Origin: Candidatus Xenobia bacterium
GTDB lineage: Bacteria; Vulcanimicrobiota; Xenobia; Xenobiales; JADMJV01
Assembly (NCBI GenBank): GCA_037968995.1
Contig: JBBKWP010000363.1
Span: 5,219-69,218 of the forward strand
Reading direction: 5' to 3'
Length of the DNA: 64,000 nucleotides
In this document: positions 19,726 through 28,474 of the stretch, piece after piece
Position numbering within the stretch: position 1 is the first letter of the stretch
Layout: the number at the start of each line of letters is the position of its first letter
The notes under the pieces: model-generated
Seen by the model: the letters and a program-made list of their open reading frames with translations, nothing else
The model's database searches: none
What the model was told of the DNA's origin: nothing
Translations under genes and position numbers: made by a program

Positions 19726-20736
19726 TCAGGCTTGGAGAGCTGTGATCACGGCAACGTCAACGATATCTGCGGCTTTACATCCTCTAGACAGATCGTTCGA
19801 CGGCTTGTCCAATCCTTGAAGGATGGGGCCGATGGCCGAGTATCCGCCCATTCTTTCGGCAATCTTGTATCCGATGTTCCCGGACTGGAGGTCGGGGAAG
19901 ATCAAGATGTTCGCCTTCCCCGCCACGCTAGATCCGGGGGCTTTCTTCTGGCCTATTTCGGGGATGAGAGCCGCGTCAAGTTGCATTTCTCCGTCGACCA
20001 AGAGGTCAGGAGCCCGAGCCTTGAGGGTCTCAAGTGCCTTCGTCACCTTGTCTATTGAGGCGTGCTTGGCGCTGCCTTTTGTGGAGAAGCTCAAGAGAGC
20101 GACTCGCGGCTCGACTTGCAGAAACTGTCGACAACTCTTGGCGGTGGTGATCGCGATCTCTACCAACTGTTCGCTGGTCGGGTCGACCACGACGCCGCAG
20201 TCGGCGAACAGTAGGGCTCCGTTTTCTCCGAAAGACGAGCCTGGACGCTCCATGAGGAAGAAAGAACTGACGGTTCTTAGCCCTTTTTGCAGCCCCAAGC
20301 ACAGCAGCGCGCCCCGTACGGTGTGGGCGGTGGTGTTCGTGGCGCCCGCCACGGTACCATCAGCGCGACCTAAGCGAACCATCATGTTTGCATAGAAGAG
20401 CGGATCTTTGAGTTGCTCGACCGCTTGGTCCTTGGAGAGCCCCTTGTGCCGACGAAGGAGAAAGAACTCCTCAATGTATTGCTCGCGATGCTGGTCATAA
20501 GCGGGATCAACAATGGGTATATCACCCCAATCCCAACCTCCGCGGTCGACCCGACGCCCAATAGCCTTGGGGTCACCTACAAGACCAATTTTGACCAGAC
20601 CCTGACGATGCAAGATACTGGCCGCTTCGAGCGTCCGATCATCGTCTGATTCCGGCAGGTAGATTCTCTTGGGGTCAGCGGCGGCGCGGGCACGAAGCTG
20701 CTGAATGACGGTGTGGGTTGCGGATGTTTGTGACAT
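19726..20736 (-). CDS. pta: phosphate acetyltransferase
   Basis: PTA_PTB pattern: [63 protein letters not shown]. Internal ATG at 20736 (MSQTSATH) preferred. Confidence 0.88.
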
Positions 20737-20826
20737 AGCAGAAGCTTTTTGTGGCTTGGACCGTAACTCCTCGCTAACGGGAAGGTTTTGACATGTCAAC
20801 ACCTAAGGATCCGCACCAGATCCTAA

Positions 20827-22119
20827 ATGGGCCGCATCAAGGAGAACCGTGATTTGCGTTTTACCCGCCTAACGAACAGTAAAATTTTTCAATCGTTCCA
20901 TCGACATTCCTTGCCGATCTTCTTTCTTGTCGTGCTCTTGTTGGCCGTCGCGGTCTTCGCTCAGGAGAAAGAAGGCGCGAAGGCGGTGGAGGACGTGACC
21001 CCCGTCGCTTCGCCGACCCCAAGTGCCGATTCACCAACCCCTTCCGTCGCTTCGCCTACTCCGGATGTCAATCAGAGCATCGAAGAGCTTTTCGGTCCTG
21101 ACACTCCCAAGAAGTCACCTGGGTCCGAGTCCCCGGTCACCGATGAGGGGCCCAAAAATATGGATCCCATTCTCTACATCTGCGACCGCGGCAACGGCCG
21201 TATCGTTATCATGAAGGGGCTCTCAGGAGATCTGTTCACCAGTATCGGTTTGCCGGGCTATGGAATGGGTCGGTTCTTGCGTCCTGCCCAGCTATGGGTG
21301 GACTATGAGGAACGCCTTTACGTCGCGGACAGCGGCAACAATCGAGTCATTCGGATCGATCAAAATAAACAGCCGGGTTGGTCGGAGGTCGATGGTCTTT
21401 CGGAGCCCCAAGGGGTTGCAGTTGATGGGACTGGCGTCTACATCGCCGATACGAAAGCCGACCGTATCGTGGTCTATGACGAACTCGTTGACAAGGCCCC
21501 CATTCGGGAAGCTTTGACCCATCCTGAGATGAAGCGGCCCACGGAGCTTTGGATCGATGGTCAAGGAGCTCTCTACATCTGTTGCGGGGAAGACCCTCCG
21601 GGCGGGAAGCTTATCAAGACTTGGGTGGAAAAGGAACGACGCAGATGGACCGTTTTTGCAGGCGAGGGCCTGACGGGTTCCCAATTCCTTCCCTCCTCGG
21701 TAGTCACTGTCAAGAACGGAATCAGATTGCTAGACAGTAGTGGTCAGCGGCTTATCTCTATGCAAGACATCGCTGGAACGCGACTCAAAGAAGACAGGTT
21801 TCGAACGGATCCTCGATGGCGGTTGAGTCGTCCTAAAGGTATGGCGGTGGACCCAACCGGTCGAATGTATATCGCTGATAGCGGAAACGACCGCATCATA
21901 GAACTATCGCCCAATGGGAACGTCGTGGATGAATTTATGATCATCGACAAAGACCCCAGCACCATGCTGTCGAATCCCTCCTCCATTTTCATCTACAGTC
22001 CGGCACCCGGACCTCCACCGAAGGAAGAAAAAGACGATAAGAAGGGTAAAAAAGGCAAGGCCGGCAAGGAGAAAAAGAAGCCGAAGGGCAGCGATCTCGA
22101 GATTGACACCGACTGGTAA
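20827..22119 (+). CDS. NHL-repeat protein with N-terminal membrane anchor/signal and Lys-rich tail
   Basis: Hydrophobic IFFLVVLLLAVAVFA. SPTP-rich linker. NHL-type units YICDRGNGRIVIM, YVADSGNNRVIRID, YIADTKADRIVVYD and YIADSGNDRIIELS. Tail KEEKDDKKGKKGKAGKEKKKPKG. Confidence 0.75.
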   Translation: MGRIKENRDLRFTRLTNSKIFQSFHRHSLPIFFLVVLLLAVAVFAQEKEGAKAVEDVTPVASPTPSADSPTPSVASPTPDVNQSIEELFGPDTPKKSPGSESPVTDEGPKNMDPILYICDRGNGRIVIMKGLSGDLFTSIGLPGYGMGRFLRPAQLWVDYEERLYVADSGNNRVIRIDQNKQPGWSEVDGLSEPQGVAVDGTGVYIADTKADRIVVYDELVDKAPIREALTHPEMKRPTELWIDGQGALYICCGEDPPGGKLIKTWVEKERRRWTVFAGEGLTGSQFLPSSVVTVKNGIRLLDSSGQRLISMQDIAGTRLKEDRFRTDPRWRLSRPKGMAVDPTGRMYIADSGNDRIIELSPNGNVVDEFMIIDKDPSTMLSNPSSIFIYSPAPGPPPKEEKDDKKGKKGKAGKEKKKPKGSDLEIDTDW

Positions 22120-22178
22120 CGGACTGGCCCAAAACAAGTTCGGTTCCTGCGGTGCTCCGCAGCCGAGCTCAAAAGCGC

Positions 22179-23624
22179 TTAGGTGTTGCTACTCTTTACC
22201 GTGTTGTCTTTTTCTAAGCGAAAGCCGTCGACGGTCGAAACCAGGAGATAGCTTTCCCCGGATTTGACCCGGCTCTTGAGCATTTCGGTTGCGATCATAT
22301 TCTCCACAGATCGCACAAAGCTTCTGCGTAAAGAATCCGCGGTGGAGTGGTTCTCCGCCATGAGTGAGGCGGCGATCTCGGGGGCTATTCGCAACCGGAT
22401 AGACCGCCGCTGCCAAAGTTTTTCTTCGAGTTCTCGCGACCAACGAGTCACAAGTTGGCGATACTCTGGTTCATCCAAGGGGGCGAAGAGAACGATTTCA
22501 TCGACTTTTTCGGTCAGTTCACTGCCTAAACCGCGTTCTAGGTCCGGAAGCAGTTCCTGTTCCATTCTCTCGAGGTCCATTCCGGCGCGGGCCGACAGCC
22601 TAAACCCCAAAGGTTGGTTGCGTTCCAAGAAATCCGCATCGATGTTTGAAGAAAGTACGATCACATGATCCCGAAATGATACGCGGTGCCCGTGTCCGTC
22701 GGTGGCGAAACCACGGCCCAAGATGTGAGTGATTCTCGCGATCGCACGTGGATGAGCTCTCTCGATGTTCTCTAGCAAGAAAATCGAATACGGATACTCC
22801 AGAGCGAGTCCCGTTAACAGACCGAACGGTTCCTCGCTCGACCCGGTAAGGCGATCCGCCTCCTCCTCACCGCTGAACTCTTCCATGTCGATACGCAGCA
22901 GTCGCTCCTCGTCACCGTAGAGGAGTGCGGCCAACAGGCGTGCCAGCGTGGCCTTTCCAGCACCCCGTGGCCCGATGAACAGGAAGGCTGCCAGAGGTCG
23001 ACGAGATTCGGCAAGTCCCGCCCACGCTCGCGTCAGAGTGGAGACCACCCTGTCGACTGCCGATCCCTGCCCTACCATCTGGTCGTTGAGCACGTCGCGC
23101 GCGCTCTGCATCCGTTCTTTCCATCGACGCATCTCGGCCTGTAGTGAGCGTTGGCCCTCCCCTTTTCGAAAAAAAGTTCTTGGGCGGCGACTGGTACGTT
23201 CGGTGATTCGCTCCTCCACAGCGGCGGCCCAACTGGTAAGATCGATGTCGAGATGGGTGAGAAGTTGGCACGCATCGGACTCGCGGTCCTTGAGAAGCGA
23301 CCAGAGAAGAGTGAGACTATCGGCTTCGGTGCCCTCGAGTCGCGCACTTTCTTCGGCAAGACGTACAATGCCGAGGGTTCTCAGGGTGGGTGGCGGGTTC
23401 TCTCGCGCGTAGGCGTTGTCACCCTTTCCCACTTGGCCGACGACTTCTTGACGCAGTCGCGAGAGCGAGAATTTTCGCTCTCGAAGAAACTTCGCGGCCG
23501 ATCCCTCTCGATATCCGAGCAAGCCCAACAAAAGGTGCTCTGGCCCCACGAAGCTATGTCCAAGGAGGCGGCACTCTTCTCGGGCCCGCTCCAGTGTAGC
23601 CTCGAATCCTGGTGTCCGCCTCAC
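22179..23624 (-). CDS. Clp_N-domain plus single ClpA/B D2-like AAA+ module, with non-canonical Walker A and B
   Basis: Clp_N: LERAREECRLLGHSFVGPEHLLLGLL. D2-like: MVGQGSAVDRV, FIGPRGAGKATLARLLA, IFLLENIERAHP, VIVLSSN, and a C-terminal D2-small-like region. The GTG at 23624 overlaps the upstream stop (GTGA). ATG 23660 is the alternative. The track start 23774 would overlap the upstream gene by ~150 nt. Confidence 0.75.
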   Translation of the reverse strand: MRRTPGFEATLERAREECRLLGHSFVGPEHLLLGLLGYREGSAAKFLRERKFSLSRLRQEVVGQVGKGDNAYARENPPPTLRTLGIVRLAEESARLEGTEADSLTLLWSLLKDRESDACQLLTHLDIDLTSWAAAVEERITERTSRRPRTFFRKGEGQRSLQAEMRRWKERMQSARDVLNDQMVGQGSAVDRVVSTLTRAWAGLAESRRPLAAFLFIGPRGAGKATLARLLAALLYGDEERLLRIDMEEFSGEEEADRLTGSSEEPFGLLTGLALEYPYSIFLLENIERAHPRAIARITHILGRGFATDGHGHRVSFRDHVIVLSSNIDADFLERNQPLGFRLSARAGMDLERMEQELLPDLERGLGSELTEKVDEIVLFAPLDEPEYRQLVTRWSRELEEKLWQRRSIRLRIAPEIAASLMAENHSTADSLRRSFVRSVENMIATEMLKSRVKSGESYLLVSTVDGFRLEKDNTVKSSNT

Positions 23625-25567
23625 GCCGGCAAGGTCTCCAAGTTGTAGTCTCCGTTCCATGCTAGAAGATCTTGCGCGCAACACACCACAGTGAACGGCT
23701 GTTCGTACCACAACCATGATGGACAGCGTAAAAGTCGAAATCCACCGGGTTGCGCGACGATGAGGTGGTCCCACTCTATCTCGAACTGGTGCATAGCCAT
23801 CAGACCGTCTTCTAAATTTGGAATGCCGTCGATGCTTCCCCGCAACCCGAGACGTCCCAGAACCAGAAGGCGTCGCGCCGGAAGCTTTCGGACGGTAGAG
23901 AGCAGTGCCACCAGGAGTGCGAAGGCCACGTTACCGAGATCACTATCCAGATGGGCGTCTTTTTCTAGCTCTTTCTGGGGAGTAGAGACAAGAGTGCTCA
24001 TGACTCGAAAACTCTTGGAAAGGTAAGACGAATCGAGGTTTTCGAGGACGCCTTTGGCCAGGTCGAGACTCGGCAGCAACTGGTCGCAGCCCCAACCAAA
24101 GAGTTGGTCTTTGACTCCGCGACCGAGTTCGGCTTCGAGCCGCAGAGTGTGAACGCTCCCATCGGCTGGGAAGGTGACGAAAACCTCTACCTCCTCGGAA
24201 ATGTCGCGAGTTCGATAGATTCCGTTCGGCCCCGACCGGGAGCCGTGGACGAGCTTACTCTTGAGCAGCGCCGAGAGTTGTTGAGCGCCGAACATCTTTT
24301 CTTGTGAGAAGAGCTGCTCAGCCAGTTCCCAGACTTCGCGAGTGTCGGGGAAGTTCGAGCAGAGCTGCTCGAGTTCCCTGAGGAGATTGGCAGGGCTCAG
24401 AGTTCGATTCTTCGCTCTTTGCCAGAGAGAAAGAACGGCCATGAGCGATTCTTCATTTCGGGCAGGCCCAACCTCGGAAGATTGGGGAACTTTCGGCCGA
24501 AGAGCTTTGAGGTCTCTCTCAACGTCTCGGCCCGCCAGTGCTTGGCTCCACAGATCCTCCAGGCGTGTGCGGAACGGTATCTCACCCTTCTCGAAGACCT
24601 GTTCATAAGCTGAGGGATCACGTAAAAGAGCGGCTTCGGTACTATAGACTGAGCAGGCTGACGACCAGAGCCCTTTGGAAAGAAGACCCTCTGCCCGCAA
24701 TCGATCGATCCGAGAAGGACCCGGCGGGAGGTCTGATAGCAAACTGATAAGTTCGTCATAGCGACCATTTTCCAGCATCAGTTCCGCGACTTCACTGAGC
24801 CCCTCGCTGTCGGAACGGTCGAGGTTCTCGGTGTTCTCCATTAGTGTGAGCGCGGTGTCCAGGTCTCCTTGCATTCTCGCAAGCTTGGCGACCATGATTT
24901 TGGCTTTGGTACCATTCCAATCTAAAGCAAACCGTTGCTCTTGCCAAAGACCGTCAGAATCGAGTTCCAAAACACGTTCGAATTCGCCGCGTGACAACTC
25001 AAGCGAACCTTCTTGGTAGGTCAGAAGACCTAACAGAAACCGCAAAGACGGCGAGTCCGGATCCGCTTCGAGTGCCAACATGGTCGACTCTTTGGTCTTA
25101 TCTGCGGAGTGTTCGCCTAACTGTTCAATAACGAAAGTGTAGAGAGCTAACGATTCGCGAACTTTTGAACTTGGCGCGATTTCGCTTCTTCGGATGTACT
25201 GTGGCCGGAGAAGGCGTAAATCCGTCCATCGATTGAGGACGACCAGTAGAGTGCCCACCCGGTCGAGGGGACTCATGGAGACGGGCTCGGCGTCGAGCCA
25301 CTGGAAATACGCTTCTAAAGCCTCTTCGAGTCGACCCTCCATTTCTCGAACCAAGCCAAGCCACTCCCAATAGAGGGCACGAAGGTCGGAGCGCGGGTCG
25401 AGTTCGATGGCCCGCTGATAACTCGCAGCAGCTTCGTCGACGCGATTGATTCTCAGAAAAGCTTCTCCAAGGGTCAGGCAAAGCTCAGACTCCTTGGGGG
25501 CTGCCCGAGAGCCCTCTTGAAGTTCTTCGAGCCGAACGCTTGAGGTGACGAGGTCGTCTTTACTCAT
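23621..25567 (-). CDS. TPR-repeat protein with C-terminal Lon-protease-like (S16) domain lacking the catalytic Ser/Lys
   Basis: N-terminal TPR-like helices (LGEAFLRINRVDEAAASYQRAIELDP...). The C-terminal ~165 aa (about nt 23732-24223) align by eye to Lon_C: DSDLGNVAFALLVALLSTVRKLPARRLLVLGRLGLRGSIDGIPNLEDGLMAM versus KDGPSAGIAM..ALVS......[25 protein letters not shown]. Confidence 0.65.
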   Translation of the reverse strand: MSKDDLVTSSVRLEELQEGSRAAPKESELCLTLGEAFLRINRVDEAAASYQRAIELDPRSDLRALYWEWLGLVREMEGRLEEALEAYFQWLDAEPVSMSPLDRVGTLLVVLNRWTDLRLLRPQYIRRSEIAPSSKVRESLALYTFVIEQLGEHSADKTKESTMLALEADPDSPSLRFLLGLLTYQEGSLELSRGEFERVLELDSDGLWQEQRFALDWNGTKAKIMVAKLARMQGDLDTALTLMENTENLDRSDSEGLSEVAELMLENGRYDELISLLSDLPPGPSRIDRLRAEGLLSKGLWSSACSVYSTEAALLRDPSAYEQVFEKGEIPFRTRLEDLWSQALAGRDVERDLKALRPKVPQSSEVGPARNEESLMAVLSLWQRAKNRTLSPANLLRELEQLCSNFPDTREVWELAEQLFSQEKMFGAQQLSALLKSKLVHGSRSGPNGIYRTRDISEEVEVFVTFPADGSVHTLRLEAELGRGVKDQLFGWGCDQLLPSLDLAKGVLENLDSSYLSKSFRVMSTLVSTPQKELEKDAHLDSDLGNVAFALLVALLSTVRKLPARRLLVLGRLGLRGSIDGIPNLEDGLMAMHQFEIEWDHLIVAQPGGFRLLRCPSWLWYEQPFTVVCCAQDLLAWNGDYNLETLPA

Positions 25568-25636
25568 GGGCCAAGACGTTCGGGCAGGCCCCGGGTGGAA
25601 CCTGTCGTAGCCGGTGGGATGGAAGCCATTGGACCG

Positions 25637-26656
25637 ATGTTGCCTTTCTCCTTAGGGACCGTCGTCATCGATCCACCCCTGCTTTTGGCGCCTATGGCTG
25701 GGCACACAAACATCGGATTTCGGACTTTAGTGAGGGAACTGGGCAGTTGCGGACTGGTATGTTCCGAACTCATCTCCAGCCACGCCTTGGAAGTGACTCC
25801 CAATGCTCGGAAAACGACAGAGCTTTTCGATTGGTCGCCACGGGAATTTCCGTTTGCTGTTCAACTTTTCGGCGCTGACCCTCAAGAGATGGGAAGGGCT
25901 GCCCAGATCGTAGTGGACAGAGGGGCCCCCATAGTGGATATCAATATGGGCTGCTGGGTGCCCAAGGTCGCCAAAAAAGGCTGTGGTGCCGCCCTGCTTG
26001 GAGATCTGCCGAGGGCCCGGGCGGTGGTCGCCGCGGTTTGTCAGGCGGTGAAGGTGCCGGTGACGGTCAAAATCCGATTGGGCCTCGAGCCGGGAAATCC
26101 CACCGCGGTTCCTTTCGCTTTGGCCGCGGCCGAGGTCGGCGCTCAAATGATCACAGTGCATGGGAGATACGCCCGCCAAGGTTTTCAAGGCGATTCGGAC
26201 CACACGATCACAGCTGAGATTAGACGACAACTGCCGAGGGATGTGAAGGTGATTGCCAATGGTGACATCATAGACCTAGCGTCCGCTCGAGCCGTCTTGG
26301 AGCAGACCCGTTGCGATGGTCTCATGCTGGGTCGAGCGGCGCTCCGTCGCCCTTGGGTCTTTCGAGAGTTGGCCGCCGAATTGTGTTCTGGGTCCGAGAA
26401 GCCGGGAAATTTTCTGCCGTGGGAGATCGCGCAACGCCACCTGATTTTGGCACAGGAGTTGATCAAAAAGCCTGAGGCTGTTTTGGTTCGGGAGTTGAGA
26501 GGTCAGTTGTTGCCGTACCGGTTGGGCGCTCCCCTGGATACGCCGAATCAAGAACGCGGACTGGTTGAAGGAAAACTTCGCCAGGCCCTTGTGGAGGCAA
26601 AGACCTTTCAAGATCTTGCAACAGTCTTGAACCTGACTCGTGATTATCTTGAGTGA
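25637..26656 (+). CDS. tRNA-dihydrouridine synthase
   Basis: LLLAPMAGHTNIGFR, VDINMGCWVPKV, VTVKIRLG, ITVHGR. ATG 25637 gives a family-typical N-terminus. Alternatives are GTG 25595 and ATG 25619. Confidence 0.88.
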   Translation: MLPFSLGTVVIDPPLLLAPMAGHTNIGFRTLVRELGSCGLVCSELISSHALEVTPNARKTTELFDWSPREFPFAVQLFGADPQEMGRAAQIVVDRGAPIVDINMGCWVPKVAKKGCGAALLGDLPRARAVVAAVCQAVKVPVTVKIRLGLEPGNPTAVPFALAAAEVGAQMITVHGRYARQGFQGDSDHTITAEIRRQLPRDVKVIANGDIIDLASARAVLEQTRCDGLMLGRAALRRPWVFRELAAELCSGSEKPGNFLPWEIAQRHLILAQELIKKPEAVLVRELRGQLLPYRLGAPLDTPNQERGLVEGKLRQALVEAKTFQDLATVLNLTRDYLE

Positions 26657-26815: not shown

Positions 26816-28474
26816 TTGAACGAACCGAACGCCGAAGCCGCCGAGTCAGGGGTCCGGTTCATCGCCCCGAGCAAACGACTCTGGGTCTTGCCGATCCTAC
26901 GCGCACTAGAGCAGATGGATGGGTCAGGTCGACCTAAAGTCGTCGCGGAAAAGGTGATGGATCTTTTCTCTCAGGGGCTCAACGAAAAGCAGTTGATACA
27001 GTTGCGCGACCACGCCGGACTGGGATGGACTCGACTTGAGATGGTCAAATGTGGTCTGCTCGGTGGTGAGCGCGCCCTTTGGTCACTGACACCTCTGTCT
27101 CGCGTATACCTCCGAGCTCACAGGAATGACGTCTTGGACCCTCCTCGGCATTTTTTGTCGAATTCTAGTGATGCGGTGGAGGTCACAACCGAAATCGTGT
27201 CGGTAACCGAGACTCGAGCCTACGAAATCCCCATACTTTCCGTGGTTCGTAAGGGACGAATGATGCGACACGAAATTCTGGCTCGGGTCTACCACCATCT
27301 TAAAGACCGTCTGCTTCCTGGAGACACCAGAACGGTTCCTGACAAAAAGGTCATGGTCGCGCTCGAGCGGGCCGGTTCGGCCCTTTCCGGTATGTGGCGT
27401 GACGGTCGGGTGAGAAATCCGGTCCGCGGCTATTGGGAGATCACTGATCGAGGTCGGGAGTCTCTAGAGTTAGGAGAAGCGTTCTTCAGCTTAGCTCAGT
27501 ATCAAGGAGCCACTCGAGCAATGGTGCTCATCTCGTCGGGTCATTCTGGAAAGTCAACGTTCACTCCAAATCTACAGACCCTCAAAACGATTTTGGGAAC
27601 AACGCTTTTCGGTGAGTTGCAAGAGTGTTTACAGTTCAATAGAGGGCCATCGCCGGTCAACCCATTGGGACTGTCTCGGAATCTCATCTTCTACGGTCCT
27701 CCCGGTACCGGGAAAACCCGCTTAGCGAAGTTAGTGGCTCAGTCTTTGGCCGAGGACGAGCATCCGGGACCCGAGAGTCGGTGGCGGATCCTTTCTTTTC
27801 ATCCCGGCTACGCCTACGGGGACTTTATCCAGAATCTAGAACCGAGCCAGGAGTCTCAATCATTGACCTATCGGATCTCGACGGGCTCCTTTTTGGAATT
27901 TTGTGCTCAAGCCGATGCTGAACCAGACCGATTCTTCGTGATGGTTATCGACGAACTCCATCGCGGTGAGGCATCCCGAATCTTTGGGGAACTGGCCTAT
28001 GCCATGGAGTATCGTGGCGAAGAGGTCGAACTGGCCAGAGGGGGCATCTTAAGAGTCCCCACCAATCTCGTAATCCTGGCAACCGTGAGCAGCGCCGACG
28101 CCCACGCTTTTCCTCTCGATTCGGCGCTAAGGCGCCGGTTTTCTTTTTTGCGAATCCCACCAGACCCTGAAATTATCTCCGAACTGTTGGTTGGGAACGC
28201 GGAGTTGATGGCTGGAACACTCGAACTGTTCAACGAGTGGGTTGAACAGACGCTCGACGAGGATCATACCATAGGTCACAGCTATTTCCTGAATCCGAGC
28301 CTCCACCCTTTCACTGCCATCACTATGGAGCGGGCTTGGCGCACGGAGATCCTGCCGTTGATGGAGCATTATTTCCTCAGGAATCGTGAGCTCATTGCGG
28401 AGTCTCGGATCGCCTGGAAACGGGCTATCAAATCCGCGGCGAAAAAACTTCATACTGCTCAAGCGGGGGCTTAG
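26816..28474 (+). CDS. McrB-family AAA+ GTPase with two N-terminal Mrr_N-like winged-helix modules
   Basis: AAA_5/McrB motifs: NLIFYGPPGTGKTRLAK, FFVMVIDELHRGEASRIFGELAYAMEYRG, VPTNLVILATVSSADAHAFPLDSALRRRFSF. Two N-terminal modules (LWVLPILRALEQMDGSG...WSLTP and YEIPILSVVRKGRMMRHEI...GYWEITDRG). TTG start; the 5' end is uncertain. Confidence 0.75.
   Translation: MNEPNAEAAESGVRFIAPSKRLWVLPILRALEQMDGSGRPKVVAEKVMDLFSQGLNEKQLIQLRDHAGLGWTRLEMVKCGLLGGERALWSLTPLSRVYLRAHRNDVLDPPRHFLSNSSDAVEVTTEIVSVTETRAYEIPILSVVRKGRMMRHEILARVYHHLKDRLLPGDTRTVPDKKVMVALERAGSALSGMWRDGRVRNPVRGYWEITDRGRESLELGEAFFSLAQYQGATRAMVLISSGHSGKSTFTPNLQTLKTILGTTLFGELQECLQFNRGPSPVNPLGLSRNLIFYGPPGTGKTRLAKLVAQSLAEDEHPGPESRWRILSFHPGYAYGDFIQNLEPSQESQSLTYRISTGSFLEFCAQADAEPDRFFVMVIDELHRGEASRIFGELAYAMEYRGEEVELARGGILRVPTNLVILATVSSADAHAFPLDSALRRRFSFLRIPPDPEIISELLVGNAELMAGTLELFNEWVEQTLDEDHTIGHSYFLNPSLHPFTAITMERAWRTEILPLMEHYFLRNRELIAESRIAWKRAIKSAAKKLHTAQAGA

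Follow-up and report, generated by a model that had tools for sequence, protein, structure and literature searches.

The window analysed here is a stretch of 64,000 nucleotides (nt) from a Candidatus Xenobia bacterium (GenBank assembly GCA_037968995.1, contig JBBKWP010000363.1, positions 5,219 to 69,218), and the subject of this work is a pair of adjoining genes on its minus strand. The assembly comprises 6.5 Mb in 497 contigs and is 96% complete, and the lineage is known from metagenome-assembled genomes alone. Gene 1 encodes a tetratricopeptide repeat (TPR) solenoid followed by a Lon-fold domain without its catalytic residues. Gene 2 encodes a ClpC-derived AAA+ protein in which the motor residues have been replaced. 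The two pseudoenzymes, made from parts of two different AAA+ protease systems, form an operon that is specific to the lineage and inherited vertically. The following features are found at the locus, with positions counted along the window.

23621-25567, minus strand: gene 1, the TPR-pseudoLon protein (P0001), 648 amino acids (open reading frame and translation; 56 full-length homologues; AlphaFold2 model)
24245-25543, minus strand: TPR-like helical solenoid of gene 1, residues 9-441 (Pfam TPR families; all-helical model; Foldseek matches to OGT and CTPR solenoids)
24917-24949, minus strand: insert LWQEQRFALDW, residues 207-217, modelled as a beta-hairpin interrupting the TPR solenoid
23666-24187, minus strand: pseudoprotease domain of the Lon S16 fold, residues 461-634 (profile against Lon structures in the PDB; Foldseek)
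23939-23941, minus strand: D543 at the position of the Lon catalytic serine (DSDLG against GPSAG; HMMER alignment)
23810-23812, minus strand: E586 at the position of the Lon catalytic lysine (NLEDG against GGLKEK; HMMER alignment)
23621-23624, minus strand: GTGA overlap of the gene 2 start (GTG, 23624-23622) and the gene 1 stop (TGA, 23623-23621)
22179-23624, minus strand: gene 2, a Clp_N plus ClpC-D2-like pseudo-ATPase, 481 amino acids from a GTG start
23205-23615, minus strand: Clp_N domain of gene 2, two repeats, residues about 4-140 (Pfam, 6.9e-15; matches to ClpC N-terminal domains)
22950-22973, minus strand: Walker A GPRGAGKA, residues 218-225 (ClpC GPTGVGKT), with the lysine retained and the threonine replaced by alanine
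22815-22862, minus strand: D2 pore-loop site, which has SSEEPFG in place of ClpC SPPGYVGYDEGG, five residues deleted and the aromatic GYVG gone
22767-22778, minus strand: Walker B LLEN, residues 283-286 (LLENIERAHP against ClpC LLDEIEKAHP; alignment to ClpC D2)
N327 of gene 2: sensor-1 asparagine, kept in the window protein (SSN against ClpC TSN)
22602-22610, minus strand: putative ClpP loop L339-G340-F341, aligned over ClpC VGF 671-673
22506-22508, minus strand: K373 at the D2 arginine-finger position (LTEKVDE against ClpC FINRIDE; alignment)
22335-22337, minus strand: D430 at the sensor-2 arginine position (TADSLRR against ClpC GARPLRR; alignment)
22251-22478, minus strand: D2-small-like C-terminal subdomain, residues 383-458 (Pfam ClpB_D2-small, E=0.012; 5.6e-8 in P0099)

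The C-terminal part of gene 1 had been described in the original prediction, made from the letters alone, as a Lon S16-like domain with both the serine and the lysine of the dyad replaced, and this description holds. Since Pfam and NCBIfam gave TPRs alone for the window protein, with no Lon_C match at E<=1, the assignment needed a family profile. Built from the C-terminal ~200 residues of 14 family members, this pseudoLon profile matched Lon proteases of solved structure along the entire domain (7p6u, 4e-16; 4ypm, 8e-16; E. coli 1rr9, 2e-11) and also matched BrxL (6.5e-6). Distant family members with about 35% identity pass Pfam Lon_C themselves, such as P0054 with 41 bits against a cut-off of 21.1. 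In the HMMER alignments, Lon DGPSAG lies over L-D-S-D-L-G and GG(V/L)KEK lies over P-N-L-E-D-G. The full-length AlphaFold model (predicted local distance difference test, pLDDT, 87.6; predicted template modelling score, pTM, 0.74) consists of the helical solenoid at residues 9-441 and an alpha/beta domain at 461-634. When this model was used in Foldseek, TPR solenoids alone (OGT, CTPR) were returned, and the Lon match required the domain to be modelled separately. The domain modelled alone (pLDDT 82.7) matched LonA, the proteolytic domain of E. coli Lon and the C-terminal domain of BrxL, with target-normalised template modelling scores (TM-scores) that reached 0.73. The fused AAA+ module of Lon is also missing, and the TPR solenoid stands at residues 9-441 instead. 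The gene 1 protein therefore has a Lon fold, yet it is no Lon protease, because the dyad and the Lon AAA+ module are both missing.

The best-conserved part of the gene 1 protein, judged by invariant columns, is its N-terminal third, at about residues 24-120. Further along the solenoid, five residues of the hairpin insert (W208, E210, R212, L215 and W217) are invariant in 56 of 56 aligned homologues, and for this reason the insert LWQEQRFALDW is a candidate binding site.

Gene 2 combines a clear Clp_N domain with one AAA_2 domain (Pfam, 5e-21), and the EHLLLGL motif of the first Clp_N repeat is invariant in the gene 2 family. Its closest solved relative is the D2 module of B. subtilis ClpC (3j3t, 4e-64), with residues 170-468 aligned over ClpC 497-800. 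The protein has a single D2-type AAA+ module and neither a D1 module nor an M-domain. The gene 2 ATPase is a descendant of ClpC and would have originated from a ClpC that dropped D1 and the M-domain while retaining Clp_N and D2. The Clp_N domain, the single D2 module, the unusual Walker A and Walker B motifs and the retained D2-small region had all been recognised correctly beforehand. The loss of catalytic residues had also been recognised and is confirmed, but it was understated, as the pore loop, the arginine finger and sensor-2 are gone too. The finger is represented in ClpC by the arginine of the NRID motif, which is R747 in T. thermophilus ClpB. The sensor-1 asparagine, also said to be retained, is indeed found in the window protein, but it is present in the window genus only.

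With D1, the M-domain, canonical Walker motifs, the pore loop, the arginine finger and sensor-2 all missing, the gene 2 protein is not an Hsp100 unfoldase. Owing to the loss of the Walker A threonine, the catalytic glutamate, the arginine finger, the sensor-2 arginine and the pore-loop tyrosine, neither ATP hydrolysis at a useful rate nor substrate threading would be expected. Judged by sequence, both products of the pair lack the residues for peptide-bond hydrolysis, ATP hydrolysis and substrate threading. The gene 2 protein probably still binds nucleotide, because the P-loop lysine is kept in nearly all members. The other retained element, which had not been noticed beforehand, is a loop. 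In ClpC, the tip of the hydrophobic-Gly-Phe loop (VGF 671-673) docks in the hydrophobic pockets (H-sites) of ClpP, and mutation of this motif abolishes ClpC-ClpP binding (PMC12521514). LGF 339-341 of gene 2 is aligned to this tip and is a putative ClpP-docking loop.

The two genes meet in a GTGA stop/start overlap, as had been noted, and the minus-strand sequence across the junction is GCCGGCGTGAGG. A GGAG motif lies 11 nt upstream of the gene 2 GTG. The overlap indicates translational coupling of the two genes. The GTG start was assigned because the gene 2 homologues all start with MRRTPEF, with V as the first residue in one. A start at the ATG at ~23661 and the longest open reading frame, from 23774, were rejected on the basis of the same homologues. 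A promoter and terminator consensus scan of 21900-26000 found none above the shuffled expectation. At the far end of the operon, just past the ATPase stop, the minus strand at 22125-22178 contains a 6-bp GC-rich hairpin (CTGCGG-AGCA-CCGCAG) with TTTT some bases on. The hairpin lies in the 59-nt convergent gap to an NHL-repeat gene, was not called in the consensus scan, and may be regarded as a weak terminator candidate. At the other end, the divergent starts of gene 1 (25567, minus strand) and dus (25595, plus strand) are 27 nt apart (25568-25594), and the spacing is identical in L029, an independent metagenome contig and the closest relative. Such a gap implies that the promoters lie inside the adjoining coding regions or that one start is mis-set.

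The residue losses are not peculiar to the window. They were surveyed in twelve loci over eight genera in three families, designated below by handles (genera g1 to g9, families f1 to f3). The Lon serine position is occupied by D, E, N or G in 12 of 12 loci and the lysine position by E, A, I, V, G or C, and the Ser-Lys dyad is lost in 20 of 20 aligned gene 1 family sequences. On the ATPase side, the position of the Walker A threonine holds A, L, R, Q or K, with T in g3 and g6 only. The P-loop lysine is kept almost everywhere; one g4 member has GR for GK. Walker B ends in ED in most genera, in EN or ES in the window genus and in EG or DG in g7. The pore loop, the arginine finger and the sensor-2 arginine are missing in all twelve loci. 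Every sequence, in all genera, has the pattern of the ClpP loop, [LV]G[FL] with R after it. The substitutions are conserved in homologues as regards the losses, which are family-wide, but not as regards the exact residues, which depend on the lineage: two sister genera have a canonical Walker A (GKT), and Walker B was ancestrally 'ED'.

The pseudoLon profile was also used in an exhaustive HMMER search against 1.84 billion (1.84e9) representative proteins. The search delimited a discrete family of about 28 clusters at E<1e-17, whose full-length members have 544-741 amino acids with the domain at the C-terminus. Every family representative covering the two positions lacks both catalytic residues. 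Beyond the family, from P0185 on, nearly every listed match is a canonical Lon with DGPSAG and GGxKEK, and no dyad-bearing intermediate between the two groups was seen among the matches listed. The dyad was lost in the common ancestor of the TPR-pseudoLon family.

Both genes are clearly under purifying selection, as strong as that on the adjoining housekeeping genes. In the comparison of the window with L029, the ratio of non-synonymous to synonymous substitution rates (dN/dS) was 0.029 for the ATPase and 0.077 for the TPR-pseudoLon protein (0.067 for the TPR part and 0.099 for the pseudoLon part), against 0.034 for Pta, 0.064 for the NHL-repeat protein and 0.094 for Dus; these values are approximate because the synonymous divergence (dS) of 1.2-1.7 is near saturation. 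The absence of so many catalytic motifs could suggest that the pair consists of decaying remnants of a once-active system, with substitutions that reflect strain-specific degeneration and with no present function. Such decay was rejected and has practically no chance of being the correct explanation. Both frames are intact in 34 genomes from three families, the dN/dS of 0.03-0.08 equals that of the neighbouring housekeeping genes, and the motif losses are common to the whole family.

The distribution of the pair was determined in a phylum-wide sample of 301 genomes. Of these, 34 carry gene 1, all in one order, and the carriers belong to families f1 (g1, g3), f2 (g4, g5, g7, g8, g9) and f3 (g6). 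Within this sample, none of the 6 genomes from g2, a genus of the same family, has gene 1, and it is likewise missing in the other orders of the class and in the remainder of the phylum. For 32 of the other 33 carriers, the D2-only ATPase is found immediately downstream of gene 1, with contig and strand in common, and in the exception (G086), a fragmented assembly, the two genes are on separate contigs. Genomes without gene 1 give full-length ClpB/C-type matches alone, at about 1e-41. The junction is an ATGA or GTGA overlap in g1, g3, g7 and g8 and spans 0-49 nt in the other genera, while L029 has identical gene calls and the same 4-nt overlap. The translational coupling described in the original prediction holds, and the two genes are strictly linked across genomes. 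The three checks that it had named as able to refute it were run, and none did so: the domain is Lon-like, homologues with an intact dyad are absent from the family, and the two genes are linked in other genomes. Its description of the proteins as two halves of an AAA+ protease needs revision: both are linked and catalytically stripped, but they are not halves of one protease, because the ATPase is derived from ClpC and keeps the putative ClpP loop, and the chamber-like domain is derived from Lon.

The homologues carry the source labels Vulcanimicrobiota, Eremiobacterota or Candidatus Xenobia, and the two families are annotated in their sources as 'tetratricopeptide repeat protein', 'AAA family ATPase' or 'ClpA/ClpC'. 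For one family member, P0060, the source label is 'Candidatus Nitrosotenuis sp.', an archaeon. Since all other members are of the Eremiobacterota type, the label probably reflects a mistake in binning or labelling.

The surroundings of the pair are conserved as well. Two genes flank it in the window, and their positions are given below.

20827-22119, plus strand: NHL-repeat beta-propeller gene
19726-20802, minus strand: Pta gene

Pta and the NHL-repeat protein, together with Dus in g1, form a conserved housekeeping synteny around the pair, which is inverted between families; this synteny indicates vertical inheritance and no mobile island. The NHL/Pta flank is found in every family examined (listed loci L017:1436-3019, L021:6946-8211, L022:7388-8599 and L029:7476-8744). 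In g4, the NHL gene is upstream of the pair and co-directional with it; in g1, g3 and g6, it is convergent, which implies an in-place inversion of the pair. In several loci, the NHL open frame has a charged tail rich in K, D and E at its end, and a functional link between the NHL protein and the pair is possible. Family f2, whose genomes are small, has in g4 and g7 a further gene of ~660-735 amino acids, which comes immediately after the ATPase and shares its strand (L017:6619-8826, L024:6899-9001, L019:499-2580, L025:1129-3102). The two that were scanned (L017, L019) gave no Pfam match, and this gene may be an additional, third component of the module in f2. On the other side of the window pair, dus is adjoined by a gene for an Mrr_N plus AAA_5 (McrB-like) protein (26816-28474, plus strand), which is conserved in L029. 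PADLOC had no model match for the TPR-pseudoLon protein and gave generic AAA_2-level matches alone for the ATPase (DolB 7.5e-11, partial). By the PADLOC models and by its genomic context, the pair lies outside known anti-phage defence systems, including BREX BrxL, Dodola DolB and others.

Genuine proteolytic machines exist beside the pair. ClpP (two copies) and a genuine Lon are encoded elsewhere in the window genome, and canonical Clp ATPases are present in all genomes bearing the pair. Genomes of g2 (G050, G070, G076, G084, G098), the only genus in its family to lack the pair, encode a divergent paralogue as a third ClpP (E 1e-20 to 1e-32), which is missing from the sampled pair-bearing genomes.

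With moderate confidence, only somewhat above even, the pair can be regarded as regulating or scaffolding Clp proteolysis without any catalysis of its own. Judged from its counterparts in LonA, RadA, ComM and BrxL, the pseudoLon domain is most likely a ring-forming (hexameric) scaffold that displays TPR arms. RadA and ComM both need their Lon-like domain for oligomerisation (PMC11612176). Translational coupling would provide both proteins in a fixed proportion for one complex, in which the ATPase would bind nucleotide without turnover. The inert ClpC-like ring may then dock ClpP via its LGF loops and cap it, gate it or compete with ClpC/ClpX for it, while Clp_N and the TPR-pseudoLon partner would offer surfaces to which clients or adaptors bind. 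Within this scheme, the putative docking on ClpP is the step that is favoured. The roles of trap, adaptor or regulator put forward earlier are likewise conceivable. The pair can be seen as a natural separation-of-function experiment, in which the docking loop and, nearly always, the P-loop lysine were kept while the motor residues vary. This selective retention suggests that docking and nucleotide binding alone are biologically useful, through gating, capping or competing at ClpP.

Several observations weigh against this scheme. No ClpP gene is linked to the pair, and the ClpP copy number does not correlate with the presence of the pair, which speaks neither for nor against ClpP docking. The loss of both genes in genus g2 shows that this genus can do without the module. 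The dN/dS values are approximate, with dS near saturation. ClpP need not be the partner of the retained LGF loop, which could instead serve, for instance, the pseudoLon ring, and the members of g3 and g6, with GKT and 'ED', might retain residual ATPase activity.

Another reading is a dead chimera of a ClpC-type ring and a Lon-type ring, whose LGF loops would either cap or gate ClpP or clamp the two rings together, with turnover-free nucleotide binding as the assembly switch; this is an attractive possibility but a rather doubtful one. It appears unlikely, to a slightly greater degree, that the double ring is wholly self-contained. In that case, the ClpC-derived ring would sit on the pseudoLon ring with its LGF loops docking the dead Lon ring and not ClpP, and the whole would mimic an AAA+ protease without any catalysis and, independently of ClpP, would hold, sequester or present clients bound by the TPR and Clp_N domains. 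The strict co-occurrence and coupling of the genes, the lack of a ClpP gene nearby and the absence of any relation between the pair and ClpP copy number are in keeping with this arrangement, as is the use of Lon-like domains as scaffolds of ATPase rings in RadA and ComM. However, the loop motif fits the ClpP-docking consensus exactly, and a pocket for an IGF-type loop is known in no Lon-fold domain.

Two further explanations assign the ATPase a partner that acts on it or is acted upon by it, and both are improbable. According to one, gene 2 encodes a slow ATPase that is activated in trans, a switch and no motor, with the arginine supplied by the TPR-pseudoLon protein or by ClpC in mixed rings. 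Torsin, a ClpB-D2-like AAA+ protein without its own arginine finger, is activated in this manner by a dead AAA+-like partner, LAP1 (PMC4358337). The P-loop lysine is kept nearly everywhere, g3 and g6 have GKT and the acidic 'ED', and the pseudoLon domain contains a family-invariant arginine (R614-x-P616). Nevertheless, the threonine position of Walker A varies (A, L, R, Q, K), several genera have N, S or G in place of the catalytic residue, and sensor-2 has gone as well, which indicates relaxed constraint on catalysis; moreover, the partner has no AAA+ fold able to sit in the ring. According to the other, which is given equally little weight, the D2-only protein joins ClpC through D2-D2 or Clp_N contacts as a poison or modulator subunit that tunes or blocks the unfoldase, with the TPR-pseudoLon protein as its adaptor. 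Its closest similarity is to the ClpC D2 and the ClpC N-domain, and all the genomes concerned have canonical Clp ATPases, but the identity to ClpC is just 30-35%, the arginine finger and sensor-2 are lost at the very interfaces that mixed rings need, and the obligate pseudoLon partner is left unexplained.

If the preferred reading, a non-catalytic regulator or scaffold of Clp proteolysis, is true, the pair would be a protein-based counterpart to ClpP modulators of the acyldepsipeptide (ADEP) type, and a role would be given to families annotated merely as 'TPR protein' and 'AAA family ATPase'. Should the chimera of two dead rings be real, it would represent a new class of endogenous ClpP protein regulator made wholly of pseudoenzymes.

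Protease-derived pseudoenzymes are known case by case, for example ClpR, FtsHi, the Lon-like domains of RadA, ComM and BrxL, and Torsin/LAP1. In accordance with the original prediction, no description of a TPR/Lon-like plus ClpC-like pseudoenzyme pair was found in Pfam, NCBIfam, PADLOC or literature searches. The nearest relative of gene 2 is ClpC of B. subtilis and S. aureus, the class I Hsp100 partner of ClpP, with which it shares Clp_N, the large and small parts of D2 and the hydrophobic-Gly-Phe loop. Unlike ClpC, it has no D1, M-domain, Walker A threonine, Walker B glutamate, GYVG, arginine finger or sensor-2 arginine, and it is obligately paired with the TPR-pseudoLon gene. Skd3 (human CLPB) also has a single D2-type module after a repeat-type N-terminal domain, and solved CLPB chains are matched at 1e-20 to 1e-22, but Skd3 differs in its disaggregase activity, in having pore loops and canonical motifs, and in lacking a ClpP loop. 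Torsin has no aromatic pore loop, which is also the case in gene 2. The Torsin-LAP1/LULL1 system further resembles gene 2 in its ClpB/ClpC-D2-like module without its own arginine finger and in the need for a dead partner (PMC4358337). In contrast to gene 2, Torsin keeps the Walker B DE and the sensors and hydrolyses ATP, its partner is AAA+-like, and it is a eukaryotic protein of the lumen of the endoplasmic reticulum.

The pseudoLon domain shares with LonA (MEROPS S16) the fold, a length of about 175 residues and an equal order of secondary-structure elements. It differs from LonA in the replacement of serine by aspartate and of lysine by glutamate, and in having a TPR solenoid of ~430 residues without the AAA+ module and N-domain of Lon. 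Non-proteolytic Lon-fold domains serve as ring scaffolds beside an ATPase ring in RadA/Sms, ComM and BrxL (PMC11612176), and the C-terminal domain of BrxL is among the best structural matches of the pseudoLon domain (TM-score 0.73, target-normalised). In RadA, ComM and BrxL, however, the fusion partner of the Lon-like domain is a DNA-directed ATPase that is active, whereas the pseudoLon domain is fused to TPRs and accompanied by a separate, inactive Clp-type ATPase. Each half of the pair has its precedents, namely the non-proteolytic Lon scaffolds and the D2-like AAA+ proteins that rely on dead partners. In this pair, parts of two AAA+ protease systems, both inactivated, are locked in one coupled operon that is maintained by selection throughout the order.

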